Source: Candidatus Peribacteria bacterium RIFCSPHIGHO2_02_FULL_51_15 (GTDB lineage: Bacteria; Patescibacteriota; Gracilibacteria; Peribacterales; Peribacteraceae). Taken from it: DNA of 47,329 nt. Location of the stretch: NCBI GenBank assembly GCA_001788965.1, contig MFXU01000004.1, positions 1-47,329 of the forward strand, given 5' to 3'. Made by a program: the position numbers and the translations under genes. Under the pieces are notes generated by a model, which was not told the origin of the DNA, made no database searches, and was given only the letters and a program-made list of their open reading frames with translations. Of the stretch, positions 6,124-38,207 are shown in pieces (position 1 is the stretch's first letter; every line of letters starts with the position of its first letter).

Positions 6124-6192
6124 CGGAACTTAGGATAGCACATTGAGCGCTACTTACGTTTAATTTTTTTTCGGGGTTTTACTGCAATGTTA

Positions 6193-6327: not shown

Positions 6328-6470
6328 TTAAATTGCTAAATTGTTAAATTGTTCGCCGGCCTTCGCCAATTTCAACTCTGCTATCCTCTTTGAAGGCTAC
6401 GGTCAGCAAGCAAGCGAAACGCGCGATAGTGCGTGCAAACAATTTAGCAATTTAGCCATTTAGCAATTTT
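6328..6470. repeat. L-family periodic-arm palindrome (L1)
   Basis: Left arm is TAAATTGC/TAAATTGT octamers, right arm is their complement (ACAATTTA GCAATTTA). The core contains GCAAGCGAAACGCGCG, shared with L2, L3 and L7. Confidence 0.8.
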
Positions 6471-8295: not shown

Positions 8296-8388
8296 ATTGT
8301 TAAATTGCTAAATTGTTAAATTGTTTGCATGCATGAAACAGGCGTTTCGCTTGCGAACAATTTAACAATATAACAATTTAGCAATTTA
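8296..8388. repeat. L-family periodic-arm palindrome (L2, short core)
   Basis: ATTGTTAAATTGCTAAATTGTTAAATTG ... CAATTTAACAATATAACAATTTAGCAATTTA, with core GCATGCATGAAACAGGCGTTTCGCTTGC. It fills the thrS-dnaA spacer. Confidence 0.8.
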
Positions 8389-9819
8389 TCAGGCCGCCAA
8401 CCCCACCTCCCGCTCAATAGTCCTCAGCTCCCTAAGCAATTGTGCGTCTTCCTGGATCTTGTTCTCGATCTTCCCCACCGCATGCATGACGGTCGTGTGA
8501 TCCCGGTTGGAGAAGGTCTCGCCCAGCCGGACGAAACTCATCCGGAGGAATTTCTTGCCCATATACATGGCAATATGCCGCGGAATCAACACCTCCCGGA
8601 CCCGCGACTGCCCCAGCATGTCCTGAACCGAAACCGAGAAATAACTGCTGACCCCCTCGAGCACGTCCTGAAAAGAAACTGCATGCTTGGCCGGCGGCTC
8701 AAAGCCGACTTGGCCGGCCAGCGCCGGATCGTCCGCCACCAGCTTCTGCATGATATCGGCGATGGATTTCACGGTCGGAACGAAATGCTCAAGCTCATAT
8801 TGGGCCACCGCCTGCATCAGAATGCCTTCCAGCTGCCGGACGCTCTTGGTCGCGTACTGCGCTATGTAATTCAAAACTTTTTCATCCAGGAGCAGTCCGT
8901 ATTCCTTGGCCTTCTCGGAAAGGATGGCGTGGCGCGTCTCATAATCCGGCTGGCTCAAATCGGCGATCATCCCGCGCTCGAAGCGCGACACCAGCCGGTC
9001 CTGGAGGATTGTAAGCTCGCGCGGCGGACGGTCGGAGCTGATGATGATCTGTTTGCGTTCCTCGATGAGAGTGTTGAACGTGTGGAAAAGTTCCTCCTGT
9101 GTGCGGTCCTTGTTTGCCAGAAACTGGACGTCATCGATTATCATCACGTCTAACTCGCGGTAACGGCGCCGGAACTGCTCCATCTTCTGATGCTGGATGG
9201 CCTCTATCACCTGGTTCGTAAAATCTTCGGTAGTGGTATACAGCACGGTCGCGCCGGGCTGGTTTCTGAGTATTGCATTGCCGGTACCCTGCAAAAGATG
9301 TGTTTTCCCGAGACCTACCCCGCCATAAAGGAACAGCGGGTTGTATTTTCCGCCAGGCTGTGAAGCTACCGCGCAACAGGCGGCATGTGCCAGCCGGTTA
9401 TTGGGTCCGACTACGAAATTTTCCAGAGTGTATCTGGAGTTCAGTATTTTGCTTACCAGGCCCTCGGCCAGTTTTATTTCACCTTTGTTCGGCAACTTGC
9501 GTCCGCGTTTTTTTTCCGGAAAATGTTCGAGTAGCTTGAGCGTACGGGCCAGATCATCTTTGAGTCCGACATCTACCTGATACACGACCTGCTCGATCGT
9601 GGGATCCGTTTCTTTCAATGCTTCCAGGGTGAGTCCGCGATAATGCTCCAGATGCCAATTTAGAAACATGGGTAGCGGCAAACCGATAATCACCGTCTTT
9701 TCTTCACGACCCAGCACGGTCGTGTCTTTAAACCAGGTTATGAACTGCCCGCGCGGTAACCCGCGCTCGATTTTCTCCAGAACCTTCAGCCACAGATCGA
9801 GGTCGACAGAGGAGGTCAT
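8389..9819 (-). CDS. dnaA: chromosomal replication initiator DnaA
   Basis: 476 aa. Walker A GGVGLGKTHL, Walker B MIIDDVQF, C-terminal DNA-binding domain (NRDHTTVMHA). Confidence 0.95.
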   Translation of the reverse strand: MTSSVDLDLWLKVLEKIERGLPRGQFITWFKDTTVLGREEKTVIIGLPLPMFLNWHLEHYRGLTLEALKETDPTIEQVVYQVDVGLKDDLARTLKLLEHFPEKKRGRKLPNKGEIKLAEGLVSKILNSRYTLENFVVGPNNRLAHAACCAVASQPGGKYNPLFLYGGVGLGKTHLLQGTGNAILRNQPGATVLYTTTEDFTNQVIEAIQHQKMEQFRRRYRELDVMIIDDVQFLANKDRTQEELFHTFNTLIEERKQIIISSDRPPRELTILQDRLVSRFERGMIADLSQPDYETRHAILSEKAKEYGLLLDEKVLNYIAQYATKSVRQLEGILMQAVAQYELEHFVPTVKSIADIMQKLVADDPALAGQVGFEPPAKHAVSFQDVLEGVSSYFSVSVQDMLGQSRVREVLIPRHIAMYMGKKFLRMSFVRLGETFSNRDHTTVMHAVGKIENKIQEDAQLLRELRTIEREVGLAA

Positions 9820-15297: not shown

Positions 15298-15452
15298 CAA
15301 ATTGTTAAATTGATAAATTGTTAAATTGCTTGCATGCAACAACGCGCGTTTCGCTTGCTTGCCGGACAGAGCTCTTCATCAAACAGAGCTTTAACCACTA
15401 TTGAGCGAAGGCTGGCGAACAATTTAGCCATTTAACAATTTAACAATTTGGC
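15298..15452. repeat. L-family periodic-arm palindrome (L3)
   Basis: Arms are AAATTGTTAAATTGATAAATTGTTAAATTGC / GAACAATTTAGCCATTTAACAATTTAACAATTTG. The core contains CGCGCGTTTCGCTTGCTTGC and GCGAAGGCTGGCG, as in L1 in the opposite orientation. Confidence 0.8.
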
Positions 15453-15503
15453 AAGATGGGCCGAAAGCAAAAACCGGCTTTTTGTGGTAGAATAACAAGA
15501 TTT

Positions 15504-15977
15504 ATGAACACAAACACACAACCTCTACTGGAGTGGCGGGCTCCGGCGCGGATCAATCATGAAAAAAGCGACCGGTGGTATCTGGTCAGCGGAATTATCT
15601 GCGCGATTTTCGTTGTTTACGGGATTCTCACCGGCGCCTGGACCATGAGCATCACATTCGGAATGATCGCCGGTCTGTATTTCTATGTCCGGAATCTCGA
15701 CCACCCGCTGCACTATATCCGGATCTTCGAAGGCGGTATCGAGTTCGACGGCTTGTATTACATCTGGCCTGATTTCAAACATTTCTGGATACTTGACGGC
15801 AAAACATATCACGAACTTCATGTCGAGCCGATAAAAGGCCTCCGCGCCGACATCGTGATACTCACCGACCAGATAGATCCATTTGAACTGCGGGATGTGT
15901 TGAACCAATTCATTCCCCAGATCGCACATAAACGTGAAAGATTACTTGACGCCATTATCCGTTTTTGTAAACTATAG
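15504..15977 (+). CDS. two-TM membrane protein, function unknown
   Basis: The ATG at 15504 follows a TAGAAT -10-like box. Two adjacent TM helices are followed by a soluble domain. Its stop TAG abuts the ATG of the next gene. Confidence 0.5.
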   Translation: MNTNTQPLLEWRAPARINHEKSDRWYLVSGIICAIFVVYGILTGAWTMSITFGMIAGLYFYVRNLDHPLHYIRIFEGGIEFDGLYYIWPDFKHFWILDGKTYHELHVEPIKGLRADIVILTDQIDPFELRDVLNQFIPQIAHKRERLLDAIIRFCKL

Positions 15978-18900
15978 ATGCTGCGCTGGCTTCCCTTCGC
16001 GCGCTTTGCCATCCCCCACTCTCCTGAAAAGGAGCAGCGGCTGGTCGCGTTTTCGATAAACGACAAAAATCCTACAAACAAAGGAACAGAAGAACCCGCT
16101 GAATCTGAAGGAACAGAAAGCCGCCCGCAAACATCAAATGCAACCGGAACAAACATCGATGCTGTAAGGAAAACATTGTTCAAAGTTGCTTTAAGAGATT
16201 TGGACCCGAGCTCTCCGGATCAAGTCGACCGCCTGTCCCAGGAATATTGGGATGTCCTGAAACCAAATATCGTAAAGTCCGAAAACGGCGCACCCGAGCT
16301 GGTCGAAGATTTGATCGGCAGGATGCGCAGCCAGATAATCTCCAAACACCTGGAAGAAGAGCCGTTTCTGCTCGAACTAGGGCGAATCGATACCGAGGAA
16401 ATGCCGGAGGAAGACCAGGATGCTTTTGTAAAAAAACACGAAGTTTTGATCGACCGATATTTAAGCGGGGGAATACTGAATTCGCCGGCCCATCAAATAA
16501 TAAATCTTCTGCAAGCGTTGTTTTCGGAAGCCGTTTCGAAGCTGAAACCGAAAGAAGAGCCGGCCGGTCCGCAGGCGTTTTTCCTTTTTGAAACCGGGAA
16601 GGACGTAAATGACCGCTACGAAAAAAGCGGAATCCAGTATCAATACGCCAAGCTCTATGTAAAAAACACGCTGGATCCGACGGATTATTACAAAGATGAA
16701 TCTGAGTTTGATAAAGCTTTCGCCGAACCGATCGAGAAAAAATTAAACGAGATCATGGAAGGCAAACTTCGCTGCCCGAAAGCCTTCAAGCGCGGAAACA
16801 AACTTTATTTCAACCGCGACCTGGAGGAATACAGGGACGCGACGGTGGTCGACTCAAACACAGATCCACCGCTGACTGCAGGAAGGATCAACCGTGAACG
16901 GGCCATCACCCACGAATTGACCCATTACGAAATCGACCTGCCGTACCGTGGAGAATCCTTCATCAGGCAGGTTTTGGAACACATGAAAAAGACCGGCAAG
17001 TGGGAAGAGCTGAAAGAAGCCATCGACAAAGTCTACGCAAACAACATCGCGCGTGAAAATCTCGAATCGGACGCGGACTACGTCCACGAAGCGCTGACTT
17101 ATTACCTCTCGGGAATCCGGCATCCATACGGTCCCGGCTTGCCGCAGGCGGTCTTCGAAATCATGTCCGGGATAGTGGATGGCAGCGATGATAATTTTAG
17201 AAAATTGATATCGAGTTTGGAACGGGATGTGCAAGAGCATGAAACCTTCATGGAAAACAAGTTTGATGAACAGCTGGATCTGGATCGTGAAAACCAGGAT
17301 TTTGCCAACGCCGTACAAAACGATTCCGGTTACGATCCCGAACAAGTCCGCTTGGCCGAGAAAAAAGCCAGAGAAGAACTTGGTTACAAAGCGGATGTAA
17401 TCCGCGCCGCCGAAGCCGGAGACGAAACTCCTCCCGAAAGCCCGGAGAATGGACTCGAAGACGGTGCCAAGACTCCGAAACAAAAACACGAGCCTGCGGC
17501 GCTGCTCGATAAAGTCGAAGATTTGAAAGATAAAAACGTGGTACTGAGAAATCTTCTGGAAAAGATCGAGAAACAGGGCATACCGCCCTCGATGGACCGC
17601 GCCATGTACGAAGCGGCGCGTGCCGGCGCCAACCGGATAGTCGCACAGAACCTGGAGGATCTGGACTATGCGTCATCGCTGCTTAATCCGCTCAAAAACT
17701 GGGAGTCCGGAAGTTCGATTGAAGAAAAGGCAAAACACTTACGTGAGCTCGGCCTCGAAAACGCCGATGAATATGAAAGGCTGGCCCGCCTGATACCGCC
17801 TGACCCAAAGGCCGAGGAAGCCGCTGACCGAGCCTCGGCCGGAAAGCGCGATAAAATCGCCGGATTTATAGAGGAAGCGCTGAAAGCAGTTGAGAAACCA
17901 ATGGAAGACATATCGACTTTTGCCGACAACGCTGACAAGGAAGCTGAAAAACCGACCACCGTATTCGGAACTATAAAAAAAGGTCTTTTCGACAATGTTC
18001 ATTGGTTAACTTTTTTCGATATCATAAAGATTTACTCGATTTTCAAAGAGTCGGTACTGGACAACTACCATAACCGGCAAAAGGTACGGACTTTCGACTT
18101 CGCCCAAAACTTTAATTTTTACAAACCGATACAGGAAACCATCAATAAACAAGCCCGCGCCGCCAACCAGGAGGAAACCCAGAAATACCTGGAATATCTG
18201 CAGAAGAAAGGCTGTACCTGCGACGAGCTGTTTGGCGAAGACGGCGAAGGAAATTCAGGACTGATCCGGCGGGTCGGCACAAATACCAACTACGCCAAAG
18301 CGGTGTTGGAGTATGCAGCCGATCATGCATGGTTGTATAAATTCAAGAAGAATGCCAGAGGCACATACGACGGACACGACGTCTATGGAATCGACTATGA
18401 AGGCATTTTCGGCAAGGAGGCGTTCCGCGAGTTGGTGCAGAAGAACGAAGCCGGAAAGAAGAAGGAATTCGATCGCGGTTATGAAAGAGTGGATAAAGAT
18501 GCCGATATCCCGCCAATAATCGACGTAATGTTGGAGGAACTTGAAGAAAAGAACATCTTCGCAGTCGGAGGCCTGATGAAACGTCTCCAGGAAAAAGCTA
18601 AATTATCGCATAGTAACACATGGGCGCTTACCACATTGTTCGGCACCATGCGCGGCAAATACCTCCAAAACAAGACACCGGAAAAAGTGAGGGGGTTGCT
18701 AAACAGTCTGGACAAGGGGCTCATCGACTTCGTGTCGAACTTCACCATCGGCCAGTCAGCCTGGTCCATAACCTGGCTCAAAGTTCTGCGGCATTACATT
18801 GATCCATGGCGTAAGAATCCCGATGCTACCCCGTTCACCAACAACATCCTCACCAAGACGATTGATAGAATCGAGAGACGCATGGTGCATGATGGGACCG

Positions 18901-19544
18901 ACAAGGAATTCCCCAACCGTAAGGACTTCGATGAGGCGGTCGCTTACGTCCTGTCAGGCAAAACCTTGAAACAGGGCGAAAGTATCGGTGGCCGTGTCAT
19001 AACGAATAACATTAAGCCGATTTCCATCTTTGAAGATGAATTCACCGATTATAGAAACAAGTTCTTCGACACTGCAAGCACTTCCACGGAACCGACAAAA
19101 ACGGATGATGACTTCTGGAATCCGAAAAACGGCGGTTCCGACGTGCTTCTGCTCGGAAGAATCCCGACAGCGCAAATCCTTGAGCGCAAGTCAACAGGCA
19201 CCTTCGAATATCAAATCCAAGCCAGAGGTTATTTCGCACAGGTATTCAACCGCTTCGATGATCTTACAAAAGAAGCTAATCAAGCACCGGATGCTAGCAG
19301 CAAGGCAAGCATTTTGAAGGCAAGGGATAATTTTATTGCCGATATGCGGAAAAAATTATTCGATGAAAAAAACCGGGCCGGCTGGATATATGGAGGAGTT
19401 CTCGGGAATAATACGTCACTGAAGCAATTCCCCACCGAACAGGACACCATGGGCAGAATTATACTTGATGAATTGCTTAAAGTCGGCATCATTTCCTCAG
19501 AAATCCACGAGGAAATTAAGAGGAAGGCAGCAAATATTAAATAA
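15978..19544 (+). CDS. large (1188 aa) acidic orphan protein with a single HExxH motif
   Basis: Uninterrupted 3.57-kb ORF. HELTH is encoded at 16911-16925. Long charged stretches look coiled-coil-like. I recognise no other family signature. Confidence 0.6.
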   Translation: MLRWLPFARFAIPHSPEKEQRLVAFSINDKNPTNKGTEEPAESEGTESRPQTSNATGTNIDAVRKTLFKVALRDLDPSSPDQVDRLSQEYWDVLKPNIVKSENGAPELVEDLIGRMRSQIISKHLEEEPFLLELGRIDTEEMPEEDQDAFVKKHEVLIDRYLSGGILNSPAHQIINLLQALFSEAVSKLKPKEEPAGPQAFFLFETGKDVNDRYEKSGIQYQYAKLYVKNTLDPTDYYKDESEFDKAFAEPIEKKLNEIMEGKLRCPKAFKRGNKLYFNRDLEEYRDATVVDSNTDPPLTAGRINRERAITHELTHYEIDLPYRGESFIRQVLEHMKKTGKWEELKEAIDKVYANNIARENLESDADYVHEALTYYLSGIRHPYGPGLPQAVFEIMSGIVDGSDDNFRKLISSLERDVQEHETFMENKFDEQLDLDRENQDFANAVQNDSGYDPEQVRLAEKKAREELGYKADVIRAAEAGDETPPESPENGLEDGAKTPKQKHEPAALLDKVEDLKDKNVVLRNLLEKIEKQGIPPSMDRAMYEAARAGANRIVAQNLEDLDYASSLLNPLKNWESGSSIEEKAKHLRELGLENADEYERLARLIPPDPKAEEAADRASAGKRDKIAGFIEEALKAVEKPMEDISTFADNADKEAEKPTTVFGTIKKGLFDNVHWLTFFDIIKIYSIFKESVLDNYHNRQKVRTFDFAQNFNFYKPIQETINKQARAANQEETQKYLEYLQKKGCTCDELFGEDGEGNSGLIRRVGTNTNYAKAVLEYAADHAWLYKFKKNARGTYDGHDVYGIDYEGIFGKEAFRELVQKNEAGKKKEFDRGYERVDKDADIPPIIDVMLEELEEKNIFAVGGLMKRLQEKAKLSHSNTWALTTLFGTMRGKYLQNKTPEKVRGLLNSLDKGLIDFVSNFTIGQSAWSITWLKVLRHYIDPWRKNPDATPFTNNILTKTIDRIERRMVHDGTDKEFPNRKDFDEAVAYVLSGKTLKQGESIGGRVITNNIKPISIFEDEFTDYRNKFFDTASTSTEPTKTDDDFWNPKNGGSDVLLLGRIPTAQILERKSTGTFEYQIQARGYFAQVFNRFDDLTKEANQAPDASSKASILKARDNFIADMRKKLFDEKNRAGWIYGGVLGNNTSLKQFPTEQDTMGRIILDELLKVGIISSEIHEEIKRKAANIK

Positions 19545-19923: not shown

Positions 19924-20352
19924 TCAACCGGTGCTGCCGAACCCGCCCCGTGTCTCCGACCCGTGCGAAGAGACCTCTTTCCACTCCGCCCGGTCGATTT
20001 TGACGAAGAGCCCCTGCGCTATCCGCTCCCCTCTCTCGACCGTCACCGGATGATCGGTGGTGTTTTGAACCTGGACGAAAATCTCATCTTTTTCTCCATG
20101 GTAATCATGGTCGATTAGGCCGAGAGAATGCGGGCAAATCAGGCCTTTTTTCCGGGGCAGCGAAGAACGCGGCAATATCAGCAAAGCATAGCCATCCGGT
20201 ACTTTTACAATCACGTTTCCCGGAACCAGACCGATGGATTTGGGCTCAATTATCGTGGTTTCACGAGTTATCAGATCAAAGGCCGCCGCCCCCCCGGTTT
20301 GGTATTGGGGTAGGGGCAAGGTGGAATCTATTCGTTGAATCTGAGCTTTCAT
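19924..20352 (-). CDS. dut: dUTP diphosphatase
   Basis: 142 aa. Motifs GAAAFDL, GLIDHDYHGE and C-terminal RGGFGSTG. Confidence 0.9.
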   Translation of the reverse strand: MKAQIQRIDSTLPLPQYQTGGAAAFDLITRETTIIEPKSIGLVPGNVIVKVPDGYALLILPRSSLPRKKGLICPHSLGLIDHDYHGEKDEIFVQVQNTTDHPVTVERGERIAQGLFVKIDRAEWKEVSSHGSETRGGFGSTG

Positions 20353-20795
20353 TGCTAAATTGTTAAATTGCTAAATTGTTAACTTCAAATTCGTGAATTT
20401 TATGAGGGCATTGATTTCCTTTGGTAATTTCTGCGGCTCAGAAAGGATGTGTCTATAATGCTGTTCTGTAAGTAATTTCCTCTTTTTCGATTTTTGATTC
20501 CAATCAAGAGATTCCTTAACAGATCCAAAACTGTAACGATAGAAATTAACTTTGTCTTTTTTGCCATATCGGCCAAATCCTTCCGCGATATTGGCCGAAA
20601 TAGAATCGACTGCTCTGACAAACTGCTTACCAACCGTATCCTTCGGAAAATAATCCCATTTTATAACCGCATCCCAAACAAAGTTTGAGAGATGAAAAGC
20701 CATTTTGTAAGCGCCAACATCATTAAGGGAAAGAAAAGTTTTTTCCATATCTAATTTTTTAAAATAACAATTTAGCAATTTAACAATTTAGTAAT
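20351..20795. repeat. L-family periodic-arm palindrome carrying an ORF in its loop (L4)
   Basis: The left arm ATTGCTAAATTGTTAAATTGCTAAATTGTTAAC (20351-20383) is complementary to the right arm TAACAATTTAGCAATTTAACAATTTAGTAAT (20765-20795). The enclosed gene's stop codon lies inside the left arm. Confidence 0.75.
20371..20748 (-). CDS. four-helix-bundle protein (23S rRNA intervening-sequence protein / Avd-like family)
   Basis: 125 aa. YKMAFHLSNFVWD..., VRAVDSISANIAEGFGRYGKKDKVNFYRYSFGSVKES is characteristic of the PF05635/TIGR02436-type family. Confidence 0.75.
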   Translation of the reverse strand: MEKTFLSLNDVGAYKMAFHLSNFVWDAVIKWDYFPKDTVGKQFVRAVDSISANIAEGFGRYGKKDKVNFYRYSFGSVKESLDWNQKSKKRKLLTEQHYRHILSEPQKLPKEINALIKFTNLKLTI

Positions 20796-20821
20796 CGTAA
20801 AAGTGTGACAAAGCACCAAAC

Positions 20822-22096
20822 TTACTTCCCGATCTTCTTCCTCATAAACGTCGGCACCTCCAGCTCTTCCTCGTTAAGTTGTTGTCCGGCGAGTTTGATC
20901 ACGGCTTCGTCGGTACGCTCCATCTTTCCCGCGCCCTGCTCGTTGGCTTTCTTGAATGACGGCAGCGTCTTCAGCATCGGGACTGCGGAACCCGACATCA
21001 TGTTGTCCTTTTTCTCCTCGAAACCGGTGGCTATTACGGTGCATTTTATCTGGCCGGTATAGGCGTCGTCTATCACTGCTCCGAAGATGATATTGGCCTC
21101 GGGATCGGCGGCTTCGGTGATGATCCTGGCGGCTTCGTCCACTTCAAACATGCTGAGATCGTTTCCGCCGGTGATATTGAACAGTATGCCTTTGGCCCCG
21201 CTGATAGAGAGCTCCAGAAGCGGGCTGTCGATGGCTGCGCGGGCAGCCTCGGCGGCGCGGCTGTCACCTGTCCCGTACCCTATGCCCATCAAAGCCGAAC
21301 CGGCATCCTGCATGACCGAACGCACGTCGGCGAAGTCCACGTTCACAAGTCCGTGAACCGTGATCAGGCTGGCTATGCCCTCGATGCCGTGGCGGAGTAT
21401 CTCATCCACGATCTGGAAAGCCTCGGTAAGCGGAGTGGTTTTGTCAATAAGGGACAAAATCTTGTCATTCGGTATGGTGATCAGCGTATCCACTTTTCCT
21501 TTCAACGCATCGAGGGCTTCCTCGGCCTGCTTGCGCCTCCTGAGACCCTCGAACGAAAACGGCCGGGTGACGACTCCAACTGTCAGGACGCCCATGCTCC
21601 GGGCCAGTTCGGCGATATACGGACCGGCGCCTGATCCCGTGCCTCCGCCAAGCCCGGCGGTGATGAAAACCAGATCCGCCCCTTCGATGGCTTTCTTGAG
21701 CTCCTCCGAGCTTTCCTTGGCCGCCTGCAAACCTATGTCGGGATTGGCCCCCGCACCGAGACCCCGGGTCGTACCCCGACCGATATTGACCTTTGTCTGC
21801 GCGGGGCTGTGAAACAGCGCCTGGGCATCGGTATTCACCGCAATGAATTCAACGCCCACCACTTTCCCGGTTATCATCCGCGCAACGGCGTTTGATCCCC
21901 CGCCTCCGATACCTATCACACGGATAACGGCGTTCGGCGTGCTGTCCGGTCGTACCTCCTGATATGCCGCGGACTTCGCCGTGTCATCGAATGCGGCACC
22001 TGACTGACCCGAACTTCTGGAACTGAAAAGCCCTCCCCCGGAATTCGAGGATGATCCTTTTGAGCCGGAGAAAAGCGAGCGGAGCGTATCTGACAT
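20822..22096 (-). CDS. ftsZ: cell division protein FtsZ
   Basis: [10 protein letters not shown] and the tubulin signature [12 protein letters not shown]. Conserved C-terminal peptide [10 protein letters not shown]. Confidence 0.95.
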
Positions 22097-24694: not shown

Positions 24695-24798
24695 AAGTAA
24701 GGAAGGTAATGGAGGTAAGGGAGGTAAGGGAGGTGACGAAGCAAGGGAATCGCGACACCTTCCTTACTTTCCTTACGTTCCTTACCTACCTTACCTTT
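24695..24798. repeat. K-family periodic-arm palindrome (K1)
   Basis: Arms are AGGTAAGG-type octamers (AAGGAAGGTAATGGAGGTAAGGGAGGTAAGGGAGG) and their complement. The core GTGACGAAGCAAGGGAATCGCGACACC is related to the K2 core. Confidence 0.8.
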
Positions 24799-24887
24799 CT
24801 TTTGCTTCTCCTAAAACATATAACCATATAACAATATATCAATATAACAATTCCTTAGAGCTGAAATTTAAGCCAAAAACCGCTATA

Positions 24888-25541
24888 ATGATAGGAAAAC
24901 TAACACATACATCCATGTCCGCTCTGTCCCCCGCTTACGACAACAAGATAGTTCGAAAATATTCGGCGCGCACAATCGAGCATAAGGCGGAAAACAAAGC
25001 CGCTCTGGCGGAAGAGCTGGGGTGGATCTTTGAACCCAGGCAGCCGATCCTCTGCCTGCCTTGCGGGCTCACGGACGAACTCGGCGGTGAACTGTTCCAT
25101 CAGGTGCTTCCGGGGATTTTGGAACTGCCGGTCAATATTATCGTGCGCGGCCGCGGCTCAAAAAAATACGGCGAGCTATTCACTTCTCTCACAAAAAATA
25201 TGAAACACCGGGTGGCCATAATTCAGGACGATGAAATCCATCTCAGAAAGATGTTGGCCGGTTCGGATATGGCGATTTTCTTTTCCGATAAAGAGGAAGA
25301 GGAATTCGAAAACGCGCTGCGTTACGGCGTCGTACCGATTACTCCTCCGAGGGACACAGTGGAAAACTATAATCCGGTACAGGAAATCGGCAATTCATTC
25401 GTATACGAAAATCCCACACCCTGGCTATGCTTCGCCAGTCTGGTGCGGGCACTGGAAACATTCAAGTTTCCATACGACTGGCGCACGATTGAGCGGCATG
25501 CGATGGAATCGGTGGATCGACGGACGGTAATTCAGGTGTGA
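24888..25541 (+). CDS. glycogen-synthase-like (GT5) C-terminal half with a degenerate active-site region
   Basis: HKAENKAALAEELGW..., RYGVVPI.. and the ending align with the GlgA C-terminal Rossmann half. The SRFEPCGL block is replaced by SDKEEEEF. There is no N-terminal half. The stop TGA doubles as a MITE target duplication. Confidence 0.5.
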   Translation: MIGKLTHTSMSALSPAYDNKIVRKYSARTIEHKAENKAALAEELGWIFEPRQPILCLPCGLTDELGGELFHQVLPGILELPVNIIVRGRGSKKYGELFTSLTKNMKHRVAIIQDDEIHLRKMLAGSDMAIFFSDKEEEEFENALRYGVVPITPPRDTVENYNPVQEIGNSFVYENPTPWLCFASLVRALETFKFPYDWRTIERHAMESVDRRTVIQV

Positions 25542-25676
25542 TACCACTTCGCGTTTAAAACGTTCTTAATCAGACGCGCTGGCGGTATGGAGTTCTTGGC
25601 TTGAGTAAACGCTACGCGGTACGAGATGATGCCGTTACGAATGACCGATTAGTTATGTTTTAAATGCAAAATGGTA
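25542..25676 (+). mobile_element. 135-bp MITE, copy 2 (TSD TGA)
   Basis: Identical sequence. TGA at 25539-25541 and 25677-25679. Confidence 0.85.
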
Positions 25677-25747
25677 TGAAGCGGCGTTATTGATCAATTG
25701 GTCCGACTAGATTTGGTCATTCTTTAAGGAAACTCTGAAAAATTGCT

Positions 25748-25840
25748 AAATTGTTAAATGGCTAAATTGTTCGCAGGCGACACATGGATTTATTGTCAGC
25801 AATTTAACAATTTAGCAACTTAACAATTGCGTTAGGATAT
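25748..25840. repeat. L-family periodic-arm palindrome (L5)
   Basis: AAATTGCTAAATTGTTAAATGGCTAAATTGTTCGC ... GCAATTTAACAATTTAGCAACTTAACAATTGC. Confidence 0.8.
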
Positions 25841-26037: not shown

Positions 26038-26202
26038 AAAATTAAGAGAAATAAGAGAAAAAAGGATTGCGCGCGAAGTATAACCGTAAGGTTCTCCCAG
26101 GCAAGTTGATTTAACACTTTTATTTATTGTGTCTACATGTGCTTTATGGCTTATTTTACTTACCTTACCTACCTTATTTTCCTTACCTGCCTGACCTTTT
26201 TT

Positions 26203-26943
26203 ATGTATATTTCCCCAGCATTGCATAAATCTTTCTTTTTAATCGGCTTGCTTCTTGGCTCGTTGATACTCTCCGCCTGCGGTTCCGGGTCTGATACTTC
26301 AAAACCTCCTGCTCCGGACAGCTCAACGGGTTCGGGCCAACTGGAAACCTTGGAAACTTTGACCGCTAAAGCGGAACAGGGCCTCCCGTCTGCACAGTTC
26401 GAGCTTGGGACACTTTATTACGACGGCCAGGGCGGACTCGAAAAAGATGTTAAACTTGCACGCAAGTGGCTGGAGAAAGCCGCTGCCCGGGGCGAACCGA
26501 GGGCGCAGTTCAATCTCGGAGTCATGTACTACACGGGAATCGGGGTGAAACAGGACTATGCCGAGGCAAAAAAACTTTTCGAGGAATCCGCTGCGTCCGG
26601 CAATACGAGGGCGCAGTTCAATCTCGGAGTCATGTACTACCGTGGCGAAGGCATAAAACAGGATTACACCCAGGCACTGCGATACTTCACTACAGCGGCT
26701 GTCCAAAATTTCAATGAAGCGCAATTCAACATCGGCGTCATGTACGCCAAAGCCGAGGGAGTCAGTCAGGACATCGGAAAAGCTTATGCCTGGTTTTCAC
26801 TGGCTCGGGACAATGGGAACCCGAGAGCGGATGAAGCTATGAAAAATATCGAGCGCGGACTCGGTCCCGCCGACCTGAAAACCGTCAAAAAAATGGCCAA
26901 GGAGCTGAAAAGAAACGCTTTGAGCGGGACGACGAAAGAATAA
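26203..26943 (+). CDS. Sel1-repeat lipoprotein
   Basis: Signal peptide with lipobox LILSAC. About five Sel1-type repeats (AQFNLGVMYY.G.G..QDY..A). Confidence 0.75.
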   Translation: MYISPALHKSFFLIGLLLGSLILSACGSGSDTSKPPAPDSSTGSGQLETLETLTAKAEQGLPSAQFELGTLYYDGQGGLEKDVKLARKWLEKAAARGEPRAQFNLGVMYYTGIGVKQDYAEAKKLFEESAASGNTRAQFNLGVMYYRGEGIKQDYTQALRYFTTAAVQNFNEAQFNIGVMYAKAEGVSQDIGKAYAWFSLARDNGNPRADEAMKNIERGLGPADLKTVKKMAKELKRNALSGTTKE

Positions 26944-27216: not shown

Positions 27217-27492
27217 ATGTCAGAAGCAGCGAGCACGGTCGAAATTCCGACGGTTGATCTCGGAAGCACCTATGAGGCAAATCGAAAAGTTGAGGATCTC
27301 GGAAAACTGGAGGGTGTTCAATCCACACGCGTTGAAGACAATAGAGTAATCCTCACCGTGAGTTCTGATGCAGCTCAAGACGTTCATTATATTCTCCGCG
27401 CAGCTGGATTGAGGCCATGGAATAGTGCTCGTTGTTTCCAGAAACTCGATCCGAACAACTGTGATACCACTTCGCGTTTAAAACGTTCTTAA
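27217..27492 (+). CDS. hypothetical small protein whose C-terminus is encoded by a MITE
   Basis: 91-aa ORF. The last 10 codons (DTTSRLKRS*) lie inside MITE copy 3. The reconstructed pre-insertion end would be ..NNCER*. Confidence 0.4.
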   Translation: MSEAASTVEIPTVDLGSTYEANRKVEDLGKLEGVQSTRVEDNRVILTVSSDAAQDVHYILRAAGLRPWNSARCFQKLDPNNCDTTSRLKRS

Positions 27493-27599
27493 TCAGACGC
27501 GCTGGCGGTATGGAGTTCTTGGCTTGAGTAAACGCTACGCGGTACGAGATGATGCCGTTACGAATGACCGATTAGTTATGTTTTAAATGCAAAATGGTA
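27465..27599 (+). mobile_element. 135-bp MITE, copy 3 (TSD TGA)
   Basis: Identical sequence. TGA at 27462-27464 and 27600-27602. Confidence 0.85.
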
Positions 27600-27678
27600 T
27601 GAGAGATAGTTGAGATATGTTCGAGGTATGGAACGAGGGAGTTCCAATTCAGTCTAATCTCGTCCACCAGAATTAAGT

Positions 27679-28339: not shown

Positions 28340-29206
28340 TTAAAAAATTTTTTTCGCCTTCAATCTCCCCGAATCCCTGTAATCCTTCTCCATCGCCGCA
28401 ACCGGCAAGCCATCGTACCAGGCGATCAAGGGCGACTGATCAATTTCACCGGTGATCGATCGGCCGAATCGTATTTCATCAAATTGATCCGGCATCAGAT
28501 CGATCCTCGGAAAATTTTTCAAAATTTCCTTGAGCGGAATTACGTCCGTCCAATTGAGATCCTCGGGTTTTATTGATTTTTTCAAATCCCAATTCCCCAC
28601 TTTCGTCCGTGTCAGTGCATCGAGATACCCGCCGCACCTCATGCATTCACCCAGATCATGTGCCAATGAACGGATATATGTGCCGGAATCGCAGTGGACC
28701 CATAAAACAAGTTTTGGATACGCATACTCCTTCACTTTGCATTCGATGATCGTTATCTCGCGGCTTTTTAGCTCCACTTTTTCGCCGCGCATCGCTTTCC
28801 GGTAAGCGCGTGTGCCGCCGACATGCACCGCCGAATAAGCCGGCGGAATCTGCGAAATTTTGCCAAGAAAACGGTCGTCGATCAGCGCCTGAATCCGCGA
28901 GGCATCCTCCGGAGGCAGCCATCCGGCTTTCGGTTTATTCATCGAAATCGAACCTTCGGCATCATAAGTCGTGCTCACCGCTCCGAGCGTGACGGTCGCC
29001 AGATATTCCTTGGTAAGCCCCTTGAAGAGCTCTATGACTTTCAGCGCTTTGGCTCCAACCGCAAGAACCAAAAGCCCTTCGGCCATCGGATCCAGGGTGC
29101 CTAAATGCCCGACTTTTGCCTCATTTAACAAGCGCCGAACGCGGTCCACCATGTCGTGGCTTGTCGGCCCGCGCGGCTTGTGAAGTAAAATAAAACCGTG
29201 GCGCAT
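28340..29206 (-). CDS. truB: tRNA pseudouridine(55) synthase
   Basis: GHLGTLDPMAEGLLVL catalytic motif. 288 aa. Confidence 0.9.
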   Translation of the reverse strand: MRHGFILLHKPRGPTSHDMVDRVRRLLNEAKVGHLGTLDPMAEGLLVLAVGAKALKVIELFKGLTKEYLATVTLGAVSTTYDAEGSISMNKPKAGWLPPEDASRIQALIDDRFLGKISQIPPAYSAVHVGGTRAYRKAMRGEKVELKSREITIIECKVKEYAYPKLVLWVHCDSGTYIRSLAHDLGECMRCGGYLDALTRTKVGNWDLKKSIKPEDLNWTDVIPLKEILKNFPRIDLMPDQFDEIRFGRSITGEIDQSPLIAWYDGLPVAAMEKDYRDSGRLKAKKIF

Positions 29207-29260
29207 TGTAGGAAGGATAACTTAAAACCAAAGTGTATATCTGCCATAAGATAAAACGGC

Positions 29261-29342
29261 GAAATTGTTAAATTGTTAAATTGCTGATGCTGCCTTATCT
29301 GCCTGGAATAACAATTTGGCAATTTAGCAATTTAGCAATTTG
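29261..29342. repeat. L-family periodic-arm palindrome (L6, short core)
   Basis: GAAATTGTTAAATTGTTAAATTGCTG ... AACAATTTGGCAATTTAGCAATTTAGCAATTTG. Confidence 0.8.
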
Positions 29343-29368
29343 ATCTCTAACCGCTAGAGACTAGGCTC

Positions 29369-29935
29369 GTGGTTATGGTGAACCTTACCCTGAGCTGGGA
29401 TCTCTTCATTGTCGTTTTTTTCGCGATCATCGTGTCCTACAGCTTCATCATCGGCCAGCATCAGTCGATGAAAGTCATCATTGCTTCCTATATAGGTATC
29501 ATCGCGACACAGGGAATAGGAAATGTTTTGGCCCGGCTTATGGGCGGCGATTCACAGGCGATCTTGGCCTCGGTCGGAATTCCCTTCGATATGACCTTGA
29601 TATCGCTGGCTAAAATTTTTCTCTTCGCGGTTTGTATCATCATTTTCGTAATCCGGAGCGGCATCGAAGTGACTTTTGACAAAGAAGCCGGGAAGATATT
29701 GAGCATCGTCTATACCGGGCTTTTCGGTTTCGCGACCGCCGGACTGATCGTTTCGACCATCCTGACATACGCCTCCGGCGCAGGAATACTCGACAGCAGC
29801 ATTATCGCCAGCTCGACCCTGACTACCATGGCAAAAGGCAGCCGGCTGATGCAGCTGATGATTTTAAATCAGGATATATGGTTCACGCTCCCGGCGTTCC
29901 TGATCATCGCTACAGGATTAGTTCATAATGATTAA
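29369..29935 (+). CDS. polytopic membrane protein, function unknown
   Basis: 188-aa hydrophobic ORF with about five TM helices. GTG start, or ATG at 29375. Confidence 0.5.
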   Translation: MVMVNLTLSWDLFIVVFFAIIVSYSFIIGQHQSMKVIIASYIGIIATQGIGNVLARLMGGDSQAILASVGIPFDMTLISLAKIFLFAVCIIIFVIRSGIEVTFDKEAGKILSIVYTGLFGFATAGLIVSTILTYASGAGILDSSIIASSTLTTMAKGSRLMQLMILNQDIWFTLPAFLIIATGLVHND

Positions 29936-30012
29936 CTTCCATAGTCAAATCCGTTAAACTTGCGCAATGAAAATATAAAGTCGATAATTTCACTAATTCC
30001 CTCCCCTCTTTC

Positions 30013-30342
30013 ATGAAAAAATTTATATCGAGATTTTCCGGAGTCGCCCCGGTGTTTTTCCCAAAGGCCTTGGCGGCTCTGAATACACCGACAACTCCAA
30101 ACGGACTGGCTTCATCGACCGATCTTGTGGGTACCATAACTACAATAATAACCAAAGTTCTGGACTTTGTTCTGATTCTGGCGATTGCCTTCGTAGTTTA
30201 CGCCGGTATCCGCCTGATAATCTCCGGAGGGGACGACGCCGCCAAAGAAACGGCTAAGAAGACGATTATTTACGTAATAGTCGGCATCATCGTGATCCTG
30301 CTGGCACGGGTCATCGTGGTCTTCGTGAACAACTGGTTCTAA
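30013..30342 (+). CDS. TrbC/VirB2-like pilin-type small membrane protein
   Basis: 109 aa. Signal-like N-terminus followed by two TM helices separated by SGGDDAAKETAKK. This layout resembles type IV secretion pilins. Confidence 0.45.
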   Translation: MKKFISRFSGVAPVFFPKALAALNTPTTPNGLASSTDLVGTITTIITKVLDFVLILAIAFVVYAGIRLIISGGDDAAKETAKKTIIYVIVGIIVILLARVIVVFVNNWF

Positions 30343-30461
30343 AAGAGAGGTCATTGAAGTGACTAAGGTGACCGATTCAACCGGAAATTTGGAGAGGTTT
30401 TTGGTTACTGGTTTATGGTTTTTGTTTCAGCTGCCACTCTTTACTCGAACAACTGTATGTG

Positions 30462-30787
30462 CTCAGAAATTGGCTGATATCAGGTAGTGTTCACATATAA
30501 CTGCAAACAAAAAATCGCTTCACCTTTGACTCCGCAGCCACGGAGGGCTGCTGCTGTTTTAAAAAAAATCTTTTTCCACTCAGCAGCGCCCCTCCGCGGG
30601 CGCGGCAACTGCTCGTTGCCTTCGAGTAGTCATACCATTTTGCATTTAAAACATAACTAATCGGTCATTCGTAACGGCATCATCTCGTACCGCGTAGCGT
30701 TTACTCAAGCCAAGAACTCCATACCGCCAGCGCGTCTGATTAAGAACGTTTTAAACGCGAAGTGGTATCATTCAGCCAATTCGTGAG
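30462..30787 (-). mobile_element. about 188-bp TIR element (contains B-family hairpin B2), interrupted by MITE copy 4
   Basis: TIR CTCAGAAATTGGCTGA (30462-30477) pairs with TCAGCCAATTCGTGAG (30772-30787). The body is about 98% identical to the reverse complement of 47174-47329. Confidence 0.7.
30633..30767 (-). mobile_element. 135-bp MITE, copy 4 (TSD TCA, i.e. TGA)
   Basis: Reverse-complement copy. TCA at 30630-30632 and 30768-70. The uninterrupted homologous site lies at 47190-47193. Confidence 0.9.
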
Positions 30788-30870
30788 TTCCTTCGAACAA
30801 CTTCATAACCAAAAACTAGAAACTTTTCAGTACCTCGGTCGCGTCGGTCCCCTCGGTTCCTTCGGTCACC

Positions 30871-31425
30871 TCAGTTTTGTGCCGCCGGCATGACCTCCGG
30901 TATCACGATTCCGGTTTCGCTTTTGGCTTCTTTTTCCTCCTGCAAAGGCGCAAAAGGATCTTTCACCCATATCGCACTGCCCGTCACTTCGACTATGTCG
31001 GTCGCAGGCATTGGCTGGCGCTGAACGAAGTATTTCCGCGGAAACAGCCACTCGATGCAAAAATGACGGGTGTCAAACTGCACATCGGCACAGATTCCCA
31101 GACTTTTTTTCGAGCCTTTTATCCGTATTCGCTGACCCAATATTTTCCGGTTGTCGCGTATCAACGGCTGCAAACGAATCAATTCTTCGGGCGGAGCCAG
31201 CCTGTCGCGCGTCTTGATGTGAACTCCAGAACCCCAACCGATGATATCCACGGCCGGTAAAAAAAGTTCTCTGGCATCCGAAAGCGCAATCGAAGGGATG
31301 ACAAAAAAACCCTCGATGCGTCCGGTGTCGGGTTGTATTAGCGGATGCATCAGGTGTCCGACTGTTTCCAGTGTCTCATCATCGATGATCGGCAGGCCGG
31401 TGACCGACGATGAACGCACGTGCAT
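30871..31425 (-). CDS. PRC-barrel-like domain protein
   Basis: About 184 aa. Two repeats of a PRC-barrel-like pattern (GLPIIDDETLETVGHL.., LGQRIRIKGSKKSLGICADVQFD). Weak call. Confidence 0.35.
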   Translation of the reverse strand: MHVRSSSVTGLPIIDDETLETVGHLMHPLIQPDTGRIEGFFVIPSIALSDARELFLPAVDIIGWGSGVHIKTRDRLAPPEELIRLQPLIRDNRKILGQRIRIKGSKKSLGICADVQFDTRHFCIEWLFPRKYFVQRQPMPATDIVEVTGSAIWVKDPFAPLQEEKEAKSETGIVIPEVMPAAQN

Positions 31426-31477
31426 TACCAAGATTATAAAGGAACCTCTGATTAATGTCTTTTACAACTAGTTTGAA

Positions 31478-31651
31478 CCAAATTGTTAAATTGTTATATT
31501 GCTAAATTGTTCGCCCATTCGATTAGCTCAGGGCGACCTTATCGACACACAAACATGAGTGTCATCATGGGCGACCTGAGCTTGTCGAAGGTCGCAAGCG
31601 AAAACCACGTTTCTTGAATGCTTAACAATTTCGCAATTTAGCAATTTAACA
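31478..31651. repeat. L-family periodic-arm palindrome (L7)
   Basis: CCAAATTGTTAAATTGTTATATTGCTAAATTGTTCGC ... GCTTAACAATTTCGCAATTTAGCAATTTAAC. The core has GCAAGCGAAAAC plus a GCTCAGGGCGACC unit. Confidence 0.8.
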
Positions 31652-31704
31652 TCCGACAAAAAAACTATATGCCTACACCTGTCTTCTTTGCTAAACTTGC
31701 ATCC

Positions 31705-38203: not shown

Positions 38204-38207
38204 TTTT

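Follow-up and report, generated by a model that had tools for sequence, protein, structure and literature searches.

An IVS-like four-helix-bundle gene cassette framed by inverted octamer arrays in the ftsZ-dut spacer of a Candidatus Peribacteria genome

The DNA analysed here, referred to as the window, is a stretch of 47,329 nucleotides from Candidatus Peribacteria bacterium RIFCSPHIGHO2_02_FULL_51_15 (assembly GCA_001788965.1, contig MFXU01000004.1, positions 1 to 47,329 of the forward strand). In this window the spacer between ftsZ and dut is filled by a small gene of the four-helix-bundle (4HB) family first found inside ribosomal RNA intervening sequences (IVSs), framed by two inverted arms made of TAAATTGY octamers. 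A sequence-only reading had described this arrangement as resembling an IVS outside rRNA, with short ORF-less palindromes related to it as MITEs are to an autonomous element, and had suggested that the protein might bind the arms. The observation was confirmed, and the interpretation is supported by the results presented below, although binding of the arms by the protein, processing of the RNA and the mobility mechanism are so far only inferred or hypothetical. The features of the locus, and the related ORF-less palindromes (L elements), are listed in Table 1.

Table 1. Features of the ftsZ-dut cassette and of the other L elements of the window (L088, a related genome)
Position	Strand	Feature	Remarks
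20822..22096	-	ftsZ	Upstream gene of the operon, co-oriented with the cassette
20757..20795	-	5' arm (in the sense of the ORF)	Three perfect ATTGYT octamer units, degenerate units at both ends; starts 26 nt after the ftsZ stop codon and ends 8 nt before the ATG of the 4HB gene
20371..20748	-	4HB gene (PF05635 / TIGR02436)	125 aa, ATG start; basic (pI 9.7, net +9)
20351..20389	-	3' arm	Four RCAAT units; contains the last codons (LTI) and the stop codon (20371-20373) of the 4HB gene; ends at the ATG of dut (20350-20352)
19924..20352	-	dut (dUTPase)	Downstream gene, co-oriented; start codon directly follows the arm
6329..6470	.	ORF-less L element	Core related to those of 15298 and 8296; folds as a long hairpin
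8296..8388	.	ORF-less L element	Abuts the stop codon of gene 8389-9819; lies 16 nt before the start of gene 6477-8279
15298..15450	.	ORF-less L element	Core shares 20 nt (GCAAGCAAGCGAAACGCGCG) with 6329, in the opposite orientation; ends 5 nt before the start of gene 15456-15977
25739..25828	.	ORF-less L element	Core starts with TTCGCAGGCGA, as does the leader of the 4HB-bearing element of L088
29261..29342	.	ORF-less L element	In the truB / 186-aa-gene spacer; the orthologous spacer in L088 carries a full 4HB element
31479..31648	.	ORF-less L element	The orthologous spacer in L088 is 41 nt long and has no element (empty site)
24818..24851	-	Solo L-like array	ATTGTTAT ATTGATAT ATTGTTAT ATGGTTAT, with no partner arm

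The arms are 39 nt long and 90% complementary, with 367 nt between them, and both are period-8 arrays for which TRF gave 4.0 and 3.5 copies. The octamer pattern TAAATTGYTAAATTG, allowing up to 2 mismatches, occurs 37 times in the window against 0.45 expected, and none of 100 shuffles reached 37. The matches fall in exactly seven inverted pairs, namely the cassette (20351-20795) and the six ORF-less L elements, and only the cassette carries an ORF. All seven share one unit variant and fold as hairpins. RNA folding of 20330-20815 (minus strand) closes with a stem of about 40 bp (MFE -114.4 kcal/mol, z = -3.0). No consensus match to a promoter or terminator was found inside the element on the minus strand.

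The profile searches placed the protein clearly in its family, with 71.2 bits for PF05635 (cut-off 33.8, E=1e-19) and 75.7 bits for TIGR02436 (cut-off 24, E=2.9e-21). The conserved motif R-x3-S-x3-N-x2-E, reported as GxxRxxxSxxxNxxE (PMC3936711), is present as RAVDSISANIAEG; in the alignment of homologues S49, A52, A55, E56 and G57 are invariant and N53 is nearly invariant. The AF2 model, which is only of moderate confidence (pLDDT 66.9), is all-helical, and its best Foldseek matches were 2GSC (prob 1.00, TM 0.52-0.57) and 2RLD (prob 0.98-0.99), both pentameric, with Avd lower in the list; a profile search also hit 2RLD at E=8e-4. A homopentameric toroid is known for the family member Xcc0516 (cited in PMC4990558). 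The gene is under strong purifying selection, with dN/dS of 0.02-0.10 and dS at or near saturation. No PADLOC or PHROGs hit was obtained, and no transposase, integrase or nuclease motif was found in the cassette. The tyrosines conserved in the subfamily are not conserved across PF05635, so a catalytic role is unlikely.

As PF05635 proteins are homologous to Avd, the accessory protein of diversity-generating retroelements (DGRs) (PMC10053308), which is likewise basic, and as DGRs are probably common in candidate-phyla-radiation (CPR, Patescibacteria) bacteria, an orphan or displaced Avd gene was considered. However, no reverse transcriptase family was recorded on any gene within 10 kb on either side, no template or variable repeat lies nearby, the protein has no PF22296 (bAvd) hit, flanking unit arrays are not a described DGR feature, and the homologues lie in many unrelated operons. 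This explanation is contradicted by our data and is very unlikely.

To determine whether the arms are a general property of such genes, homologous loci were compared. A search returned 4160 homologues at E<=1e-5, the best at 70-81% identity, from many Patescibacteria classes and from Bacteroidota. About 85% of 80 homologous loci, from Patescibacteria, Bacteroidota, Ignavibacteriota, Omnitrophota and other phyla, have period-8 arrays with an ATTGYT core on both sides. Arms of at least 16 nt flank the gene in 72 of 83 subfamily loci, and period 8 is the best period in 74 of 82 upstream and 75 of 82 downstream flanks. The median inverted-repeat score is 17, against 8 in 243 control placements, and 68 of 81 loci exceed the 99th percentile of the controls. 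The unit logo (consensus N-ATTGYT-N, 3-5 units per arm) carries 1.3-1.6 bits at A-T-T-G and 0.45 bits at the two outer positions. Four further contexts, all in operons, show the same arms. Chance juxtaposition of a 4HB gene and a genome-specific palindrome family, for which it could be said that this genome carries several other families of periodic palindromes with no 4HB gene, is thereby refuted. A few loci nevertheless lack arms or have arrays in the same orientation on both sides (loci L103, L097 and L113).

The placement of the cassette is also conserved. Both neighbours are co-oriented in 59 of 67 loci, and the cassette fills the spacer almost exactly, with median distances of 2 nt from the upstream stop codon to the arm and 8 nt from the arm to the downstream start codon. 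The host operons are functionally unrelated and include ftsZ-dut, hypD-hypE, prgI-traC, pilB, cmr2-cmr3 and cas6-cas4. Cultured carriers of 4HB cassettes include Solitalea longa, Melioribacter roseus, Nostoc and Anabaena strains, and Riemerella.

More distant 4HB genes carry inverted arrays of other 7-8-nt sequences. Most of 11 plasmid-borne homologues have 7-8-nt arrays, and inverted arrays flank the gene in Geminocystis, Nostoc, Calothrix, Anabaena, Picosynechococcus and Riemerella. The cyanobacterial arrays are inverted heptamer arrays of the kind known as STRR (short tandemly repeated repetitive) sequences, which are tandem 7-nt units of unknown function in intergenic spacers of heterocyst-forming cyanobacteria, can form hairpins, occur between operon genes such as hupS and hupL (PMC2670836), and are also reported inside the RNase P RNA gene (Vioque 1997). 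No link of STRRs to 4HB genes was found in the literature searched. The window element resembles them in architecture only, as its unit is 8 nt long and its host is a Peribacteria genome.

A genuine 23S rRNA helix-45 IVS, in Azospirillum lipoferum 4B, was found to have the same layout, with a PF05635 ORF between inverted arrays of GACRGAN heptamers (3.9 and 4.1 copies). In the Coxiella burnetii IVS, RNase III cuts the stem and tandem GACAGAT heptamers, in 2-3 copies, lie next to the cut (PMC4990558). ORF-bearing IVSs are also known from Leptospira, and 22 IVP ORFs are reported in rRNA insertions of CPR bacteria (PMC11270868). The window element shares with the ORF-bearing rRNA IVSs the protein family, a long terminal inverted repeat with the ORF in the loop, arms built of short tandem units (in the two IVSs examined here or described), low G+C relative to the host and the absence of a recombinase. 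It differs in lying in an mRNA spacer, the window containing no rRNA, in its octamer unit of different sequence, in having ORF-less copies dispersed through spacers, and in its strong purifying selection, whereas the Coxiella ORF is reported to be decaying, dispensable and probably untranslated (PMC4990558). No copy of the same subfamily was found inside an rRNA gene, as judged by an Rfam search of 18 loci and the four further contexts; the Azospirillum ORF belongs to another subfamily.

Comparison with L088 revealed both an ORF-bearing element in place of an ORF-less one and an empty site (Table 1), and similar ORF-less pairs occur in eight other genomes. The motif TTCGCNNGCGA is shared with the leaders of the 4HB-bearing elements in L088 and in a further locus, L083. 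No relics of the 4HB gene were detected in the ORF-less cores, either by nhmmer with a codon-alignment profile or by hmmsearch on six-frame translations, and BLAST of the cores against all loci found only the 20-mer shared between 6329 and 15298. The strains compared (L001-L010) are at least 99.9% identical to it and so uninformative on insertion polymorphism. The 4HB gene is markedly A+T-rich, with GC3 of 36.5% against 69% and 59% in its neighbours; the same contrast is seen in the sister species L071, and GC3 stays 25-40 points below the neighbours in two species that share the site. Across 79 loci 4HB genes are on average 9.3 GC points below their flanks, and the median pI of the proteins is 9.4. 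The nearest protein neighbour crosses a phylum-level label in 34 of 82 cases, although protein identity was treated with caution as evidence of horizontal transfer, because about half the columns are invariant or nearly so and identity saturates near 65-75%.

Taken together, we favour, with moderate confidence, the reading that the feature is a 445-bp IVS-type cassette outside rRNA, consisting of a promoter-less 4HB gene framed by two inverted arrays, transcribed with the ftsZ-dut operon and accompanied by non-autonomous derivatives. The arrays are probably recognition units for the basic 4HB pentamer, roughly one unit per subunit, which would act in cis on its own arms and in trans on the ORF-less copies. 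In the operon transcript the arms can pair, and the stem would be a substrate for RNase III by analogy with rRNA IVSs, no such data existing for any operon-borne copy; it would also occlude the start regions of the 4HB gene and of dut, unless opened by translating ribosomes or by the protein. The cassette is inferred to spread horizontally, by a route that is unknown, and to decay in place to ORF-less hairpins. However, no RNA-specific signature was detected, since on the sense strand G:U and A:C mismatches in the arms are equally common (90 versus 80, p=0.49). Complementarity at the variable unit positions is only a little higher in the best register (0.69 and 0.71), itself chosen by score, than after a shift of one unit (0.59 and 0.60). 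The arms therefore look like two arrays of one locus-specific unit rather than a stem kept by compensatory change. In addition, elements stay at orthologous positions across families while dS saturates, which argues against frequent movement.

The lack of a G:U excess speaks for a possible, though less likely, DNA-level mobile element, in which the arrays are subterminal binding sites on double-stranded or hairpin DNA, as at the ends of Tn7, Mu or CACTA elements, the 4HB protein is an end-binding accessory factor that recruits a host recombination or replication activity, the ORF-less L elements are MITE- or REPIN-like non-autonomous copies, and the transcript hairpin is a by-product. This is consistent with the homogenisation of units within an element and within this genome rather than base-by-base pairing, related cores at three loci in both orientations, the empty site, the deviant composition, the protein relationships across phyla, and the fixed polarity of the units relative to the loop in the loci inspected, apart from the exceptions noted above. 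Against it, no recombinase was found, no target-site duplication was seen at the seven elements or in the comparison with L088, the insertions are stable over long evolutionary distances, and, unlike a MITE family, the cores of the ORF-less copies are mostly unrelated apart from three that share a motif. The dispersed, hairpin-forming pairs of genome-specific sequence, seven in 47 kb, recall REPIN-RAYT systems, in which a mostly single-copy gene is likewise probably flanked by inverted copies of a dispersed repeat; however, the flanked gene here is PF05635 and not an HUH/Y1 (RAYT) transposase, and REPs appear to be single palindromes rather than tandem 7-8-nt arrays.

The very low dN/dS, the single unit variant in this genome and the retention of elements at orthologous spacers across Ignavibacteria, Melioribacter, Chitinophagaceae and Peribacteria could instead indicate a domesticated host regulator, a trans-acting RNA- or DNA-binding factor whose operators, or stability or translation-coupling elements, are the arrays, no longer mobile and resembling IVSs through common descent only. 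A role in stabilising transcripts or coupling translation has been proposed for the STRR hairpins between hupS and hupL (PMC2670836). We consider this doubtful, given the persistently low GC3 of the gene, the presence of the cassette in unrelated operons of different phyla, on plasmids and in rRNA, the inferred decay of copies to ORF-less forms, and the reported decay of the Coxiella ORF.

ORF-bearing rRNA IVSs have been known for some 30 years without an explanation of the role of their protein or their route of spread, and 4HB genes are annotated by the thousand with no function; no description of the present cassette architecture was found in the literature searched. If the cassette is what it appears to be, IVSs are only the rRNA-resident minority of a much larger population in operon spacers of Patescibacteria, Bacteroidota, Ignavibacteriota, cyanobacteria and other phyla, the unit arrays are a concrete candidate ligand for the protein, and the reported association of 23S_rRNA_IVP genes with CRISPR-Cas loci may partly reflect cassette insertion rather than function. 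It would also offer an origin for the STRR hairpins and for the periodic palindromes that fill spacers in CPR genomes. A more speculative possibility, which we regard as unlikely at present, is that 4HB cassettes are a distinct, widespread class of genetic element whose only product is a non-catalytic pentameric ring reading tandem 7-8-nt units, about one per subunit, and that rRNA IVSs, STRR hairpins, the supposedly CRISPR-associated 23S_rRNA_IVP genes and the periodic palindromes of CPR genomes are autonomous, decayed or merely inserted states of it. Spread might then go through the excised RNA hairpin, with RNase III leaving ligatable ends and the Avd-like protein acting as cofactor for a reverse transcriptase or as a handle for cassette exchange between arrays.

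The 9-mer palindromes of the window were also examined for a 4HB-bearing master copy. A scan of viral contigs gave coding repeats only, and a single metagenome scan with the junction GTAAGGGAGGTGACGAA gave 52 hits, of which most were chance Shine-Dalgarno-like matches, five were ORF-less palindromes and none carried an ORF. A classical 141-bp MITE in the same window, in contrast to the L elements, is present in six near-identical copies.

The two arms of the cassette were found to form an inverted repeat of 39 nt, 90% complementary, with 367 nt between the arms, and each arm is a tandem array of 8-nt units, for which TRF reported 4.0 and 3.5 copies. An ORF of 125 codons lies between the arms on the minus strand. 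Profile searches showed that it matches PF05635 (23S rRNA-intervening sequence protein) at E=1e-19 and TIGR02436 (four helix bundle protein, 4HB) at E=2.9e-21, both far above the curated cut-offs. The stop codon lies inside one arm, and the last codons, L-T-I-stop (TTAACAATTTAG), are themselves repeat units. The start codon of dut directly follows that arm, whereas ftsZ ends 26 nt before the other arm, and all three genes are on the minus strand. The octamer pattern occurs 37 times in the window against 0.45 expected, and the matches fall in seven inverted pairs, of which only this one holds an ORF. The observation made in the sequence-only reading, that a palindrome of this family carries an Avd/23S-IVS-type four-helix-bundle gene in its loop, was therefore confirmed in every detail. 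The coordinates of the features discussed here are listed in the table below.

Coordinates of the cassette and of the other features discussed in the text
Feature	Sequence	Position	Strand
Arm containing the stop codon of the 4HB ORF	window	20351-20389	
Other arm of the inverted repeat	window	20757-20795	
4HB ORF (ATG at 20748)	window	20371-20748	-
Stop codon of the 4HB ORF	window	20371-20373	-
Start codon of dut	window	20350-20352	-
Region folded as RNA	window	20330-20815	-
Region syntenic with L088	window	28442-32634	
ORF-less L element 29261	window	29261-29342	
ORF-less L element 31479	window	31479-31648	
MITE of 141 bp, six copies	window	6188-6328, 25537-25679, 27460-27602, 30630-30770, 32741-32882, 33392-33535	
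Periodic palindromes of 9-mers (GGTAAGGRA / YTCCTTACC)	window	24697-24799, 39309-39431, 26150-26203	
Further periodic palindromes (GAAACCGAR 9-mers and AGATATA/CTTACAT 7-mers)	window	35851-35931, 38112-38208, 40355-40468	
Solo array of L-like octamers	window	24818-24851	-
ORF of 1188 aa	window	15978-19544	
4HB ORF at the same site in the sister species	L071	5001-5363	
ATTGYT arms enclosing other cargo	L054	7399-8009	
ORF-less ATTGYT palindromes	L032	743-833, 1668-1772, 9608-9696	
4HB gene between cmr2 and cmr3, Picosynechococcus PCC 7003	L110	392-748	
4HB gene between cas6 and cas4, Anabaena sp. 90	L111	398-766	

The identical protein is encoded on contig MFYA01000048.1 of GCA_001787635.1, Candidatus Peribacteria bacterium RIFCSPLOWO2_01_FULL_51_18, and also occurs in near-identical contigs from other groundwater samples. 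No reverse-transcriptase family was recorded on any gene within 10 kb on either side, and this is therefore not a DGR locus. The protein belongs to a tight subfamily with 4160 hits, the best at 70-81% identity, from many Patescibacteria lineages and from Bacteroidota. The scan returned 80 loci from Patescibacteria, Bacteroidota (including the isolates Solitalea longa and Chitinophagaceae LWZ2-11), Ignavibacteriota/Melioribacter, Omnitrophota, Planctomycetota and bins labelled Gammaproteobacteria and Bdellovibrionales.

The association of the gene with the arms is general. When the loci were read by eye and scored without gaps, 72 of 83 had flanking inverted arms of at least 16 nt, with a median of 30 nt. 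The median inverted-repeat score was 17, against 8 in 243 control placements in the same loci, and 68 of 81 loci exceeded the 99th percentile of the controls. Period 8 was the best period in 74 of 82 upstream and 75 of 82 downstream flanks, with about 3-5 units per arm. The unit is N-A-T-T-G-Y-T-N, in which the core carries 1.3-1.6 bits at A-T-T-G and the two outer positions carry 0.45 bits each. Four additional contexts showed the same arms.

In 59 of 67 loci where both neighbours could be oriented, the 4HB gene points the same way as both, and some of the exceptions are errors of the crude ORF-picking procedure used. The spacer is filled almost exactly, the median distances being 2 nt from the upstream stop to the first arm, 8 nt from the second arm to the downstream start, and 42 nt from stop to start on each side of the 4HB gene. 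In many loci the first unit supplies the TAA stop of the upstream gene. The host operons are functionally unrelated, and include ftsZ-dut, hypD-hypE, hydrogenase large subunit-hypA, prgI-traC, pilB-like ATPase, cmr2-cmr3 and cas6-cas4. No sigma-70-type promoter or intrinsic terminator consensus was found inside the window element on its strand, and Shine-Dalgarno-like motifs were present upstream of only 1 of 31 genes of this genome.

The protein is functional. Between copies at orthologous or closely related loci, dN/dS is 0.02-0.10, while synonymous sites are at or near saturation. The proteins are basic, with a median pI of 9.4 and a net charge of +6 per chain, the window copy having a pI of 9.7 and a net charge of +9. 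By profile the only solved relative is 2RLD at E=8e-4. The AF2 model, which is of moderate confidence (pLDDT 67), is all-helical, and its best fold matches are 2GSC and 2RLD, with Avd chains lower in the list. 2GSC (Xcc0516) has been described as a homopentameric toroid (PMC4990558), and PF05635 is regarded as the Avd-like family (PMC10053308). No hit was obtained in PADLOC or PHROGs.

Plasmids of cultured bacteria carry 4HB genes that are 30-40% identical to the window protein or to each other, and the arrays framing these genes are shown in the following table.

Repeat units framing 4HB genes on plasmids of cultured bacteria
Host	Unit upstream / downstream	Period
Geminocystis	GGGAAAA / TTTTCCC	7
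Nostoc sp. C052	AGGGAAC x4 / GTTCCCT x7	7
Calothrix	AGGGTGT / ACACCCT	7
Anabaena sp. 90	CAGGTGA / TCACCTG	7
Nostoc ATCC 53789	TCAGRAG / CTGACTC	7
Picosynechococcus PCC 7003	AGGAGATA / CTCCTWAY	8
Riemerella	GGTTYAA / TTRAACC	7

There were exceptions, as one Pseudanabaena copy has no arrays and two PCC 7120 copies have only the downstream array. In Gemmatirosa (plasmid locus L113), and in Microscilla in the GTDB set (locus L097), the arrays lie in the same orientation on both sides of the 4HB gene rather than inverted, which may reflect tandem elements or a different arrangement. The invariant is therefore the architecture, and the unit sequence is specific to a protein lineage. Earlier work noticed 23S_rRNA_IVP genes inside cas operons and scored them as CRISPR-associated (PMC3936711, PMC10910872). 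The two cas-embedded copies examined here, from Picosynechococcus and Anabaena, carry the inverted unit arrays of the cassette, suggesting that the published association may reflect insertion of cassettes into operons rather than function. Cyanobacterial STRR heptamer hairpins, the function of which is unknown, occur between operon genes and are reported inside the RNase P RNA gene. They look like the same kind of array, and cyanobacterial 4HB genes are framed by such arrays.

Analysis of a tblastn hit with no annotated feature revealed that it lies inside a 23S rRNA gene of Azospirillum lipoferum 4B, on plasmid AZO_p2 (Rfam LSU_rRNA_bacteria, 2692.8 bits). Directly after GTACCGAAGCTGCGGATT, in the helix 45 region, comes an array of five heptamers (CAGAGGA CGGATGA CAGAGGA CGGAGGA CAGAAAG), followed by a PF05635 ORF (E=2.1e-33) and then by the inverted array TCCGTCC TCTGTCT TCTGTCA TCCGTCT. 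The inverted repeat is 30 nt long and 87% complementary, and TRF found period 7 with 3.9 and 4.1 copies. The Coxiella burnetii helix-45 IVS is reported to have a 28-bp terminal stem cut by RNase III, with two or three tandem GACAGAT heptamers, plus a degenerate one, between the cut and the S23p start, the copy number varying between strains (PMC4990558). That is the same unit family as in Azospirillum (GACRGAN). CPR bacteria carry 22 IVP ORFs in rRNA insertions, 18 of them in 16S genes (PMC11270868). The description of the cassette as resembling an IVS outside rRNA, proposed in the sequence-only reading, is therefore apt at the level of anatomy.

The relationship of the ORF-less L elements (palindromes with the same octamer arms, named here by their first position) to the cassette was examined by synteny. 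L071, the locus of another Peribacteria species, has the same ftsA-ftsZ-[4HB]-dut arrangement, with protein identities of 93% for FtsA, 86% for FtsZ, 76% for Dut and 65% for 4HB. L088 is from a Peregrinibacteria genome syntenic with part of the window, and its 4HB element lies between the 186-aa gene and truB, exactly where the window has the ORF-less element 29261. The spacer that holds element 31479 in the window is only 41 nt long in L088 and has no element. Five of the six ORF-less cores begin with TTCGC directly inside the arm, and one (25739) begins with TTCGCAGGCGA, a motif also found between the arm and the start codon in the 4HB-bearing elements of L088 and of a further locus, L083. 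Three cores (6329, 15298, 8296) share GCAAGC(AAGC)GAAACGC and a TGCATGCAA end, in different orientations, which points to some dispersal of ORF-less copies. The other cores are unrelated, and none retains a detectable piece of the 4HB gene. All six fold into long hairpins. ORF-less pairs with ATTGYT units and cores of 11-49 nt were also identified in eight other genomes among the fetched loci. In L032, from a Patescibacteria genome, three ORF-less ATTGYT palindromes lie within 10 kb of its 4HB cassette, and two of them have cores sharing the hairpin CCTCTCCTT...AAGGAGAGG, indicating that ORF-less copies can form genome-specific sub-families elsewhere too. One pair of arms, in the fetched locus L054, encloses about 530 nt carrying a frameshifted ORF that is not a 4HB gene and whose N-terminus reads LDDFDKIAFLFGSGISIPAKIPS; the arms can therefore frame other cargo.

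Signs of horizontal turnover were also observed. The window element has 33% G+C in a 50% window, and GC3 of the 4HB ORF is 36.5%, against 68.9% for ftsZ and 59.4% for dut. At the same site in L071 the values are 28.9% against 66-69%, so that the gap is kept in two species sharing the insertion site, although synonymous sites between the two copies are saturated. Across 79 loci the 4HB gene is on average 9.3 GC points below its flanks. The window protein is closer to copies from other Patescibacteria classes (76-81%) than to the copy at the same site in the sister species (65%), and the nearest neighbour crosses a phylum-level label in 34 of 82 cases. However, because about half of the alignment columns are invariant or nearly so, identity saturates, and we weight this argument lightly. 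The persistent compositional gap is harder to dismiss, and implies either repeated replacement at one site or selection for an A+T-rich loop.

When folded as RNA, the minus strand of the region around the element closes with a stem of about 40 bp (MFE -114.4 kcal/mol, z = -3.0), and none of 100 shuffles folded as well. That stem would cover the start regions of both the 4HB gene and dut. Across the family, however, G:U and A:C mismatches in the arms are equally frequent on the sense strand (90 vs 80, p=0.49). At the two low-information unit positions, left and right arms agree 0.69 and 0.71 in the best register, and 0.59 and 0.60 after a shift of one unit, while the agreement is 0.66 and 0.58 within one arm and 0.38 and 0.41 between loci. 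The arms are therefore two arrays of one locus-specific unit, homogenised within an element, and in this genome across all seven elements, and are not a stem maintained pair by pair. The six-base core is kept across phyla although synonymous sites are saturated. Together these points favour sequence-specific recognition of the units by a factor that travels with them, and the only candidate encoded in the element is the 4HB protein, although this is an inference, binding not having been shown, and the ligand may be either RNA or DNA.

It is well supported that the feature is one member of a widespread class of 4HB cassettes that share their architecture with ORF-bearing rRNA IVSs, and that the ORF-less L elements derive from such cassettes. 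As a tentative working model, we propose that the cassette is transcribed with the host operon, and that ribosomes finishing the upstream gene and the 4HB gene run into the arms, keep the stem open and so preserve expression of the downstream gene. The untranslated transcript would fold into a long duplex that RNase III can cut, as in rRNA. The basic 4HB pentamer would bind the unit arrays, roughly one unit per subunit, thereby setting the balance between open and closed forms on its own transcript and on ORF-less copies, and loss of the ORF would leave hairpins that persist. The main alternative, which we consider possible but less likely, places the action on DNA, where the arrays would be subterminal binding sites of a mobile element that borrows host enzymes. 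A reading in which the protein is a domesticated regulator is also open, but appears less likely still. How a cassette reaches a new spacer is unknown under every reading, and no recombinase and no target duplication were found.

The protein is a member of PF05635/TIGR02436, whereas the element fails the defining criterion of an rRNA IVS, which is location in rRNA, but matches IVS anatomy. It is not a DGR, a MITE/transposon pair or a REPIN-RAYT system, although it behaves much like the last. Full-text literature searches, which left out most subscription journals and so are not proof of novelty, found no description of the cassette architecture, of its presence in operons, or of a link to STRRs.

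A classical MITE is also present in the window in six near-identical copies, with the terminal inverted repeats ATACCAYTTYGC.TTTAAAAC. Assemblies of the same species from other samples break at these copies, and two copies lie next to L elements. Additionally, periodic palindromes built of 9-mers look like tandem Shine-Dalgarno and anti-Shine-Dalgarno sequences, despite the rarity of SD-like motifs upstream of the genes here. Two copies share the inner junction GTAAGGGAGGTGACGAA, the sister species L071 lacks the first one at the orthologous spacer, and no ORF-bearing master was found in the viral or metagenome scans. With the further families listed in the table of features, the spacers of this genome hold at least four families of periodic palindromes. 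The ORF of 1188 aa has no Pfam family on record and is conserved in all strains of this species that were fetched. Finally, a solo array of L-like octamers (ATTGTTAT ATTGATAT ATTGTTAT ATGGTTAT on the minus strand), which has no inverted partner, lies beside the 9-mer palindrome.
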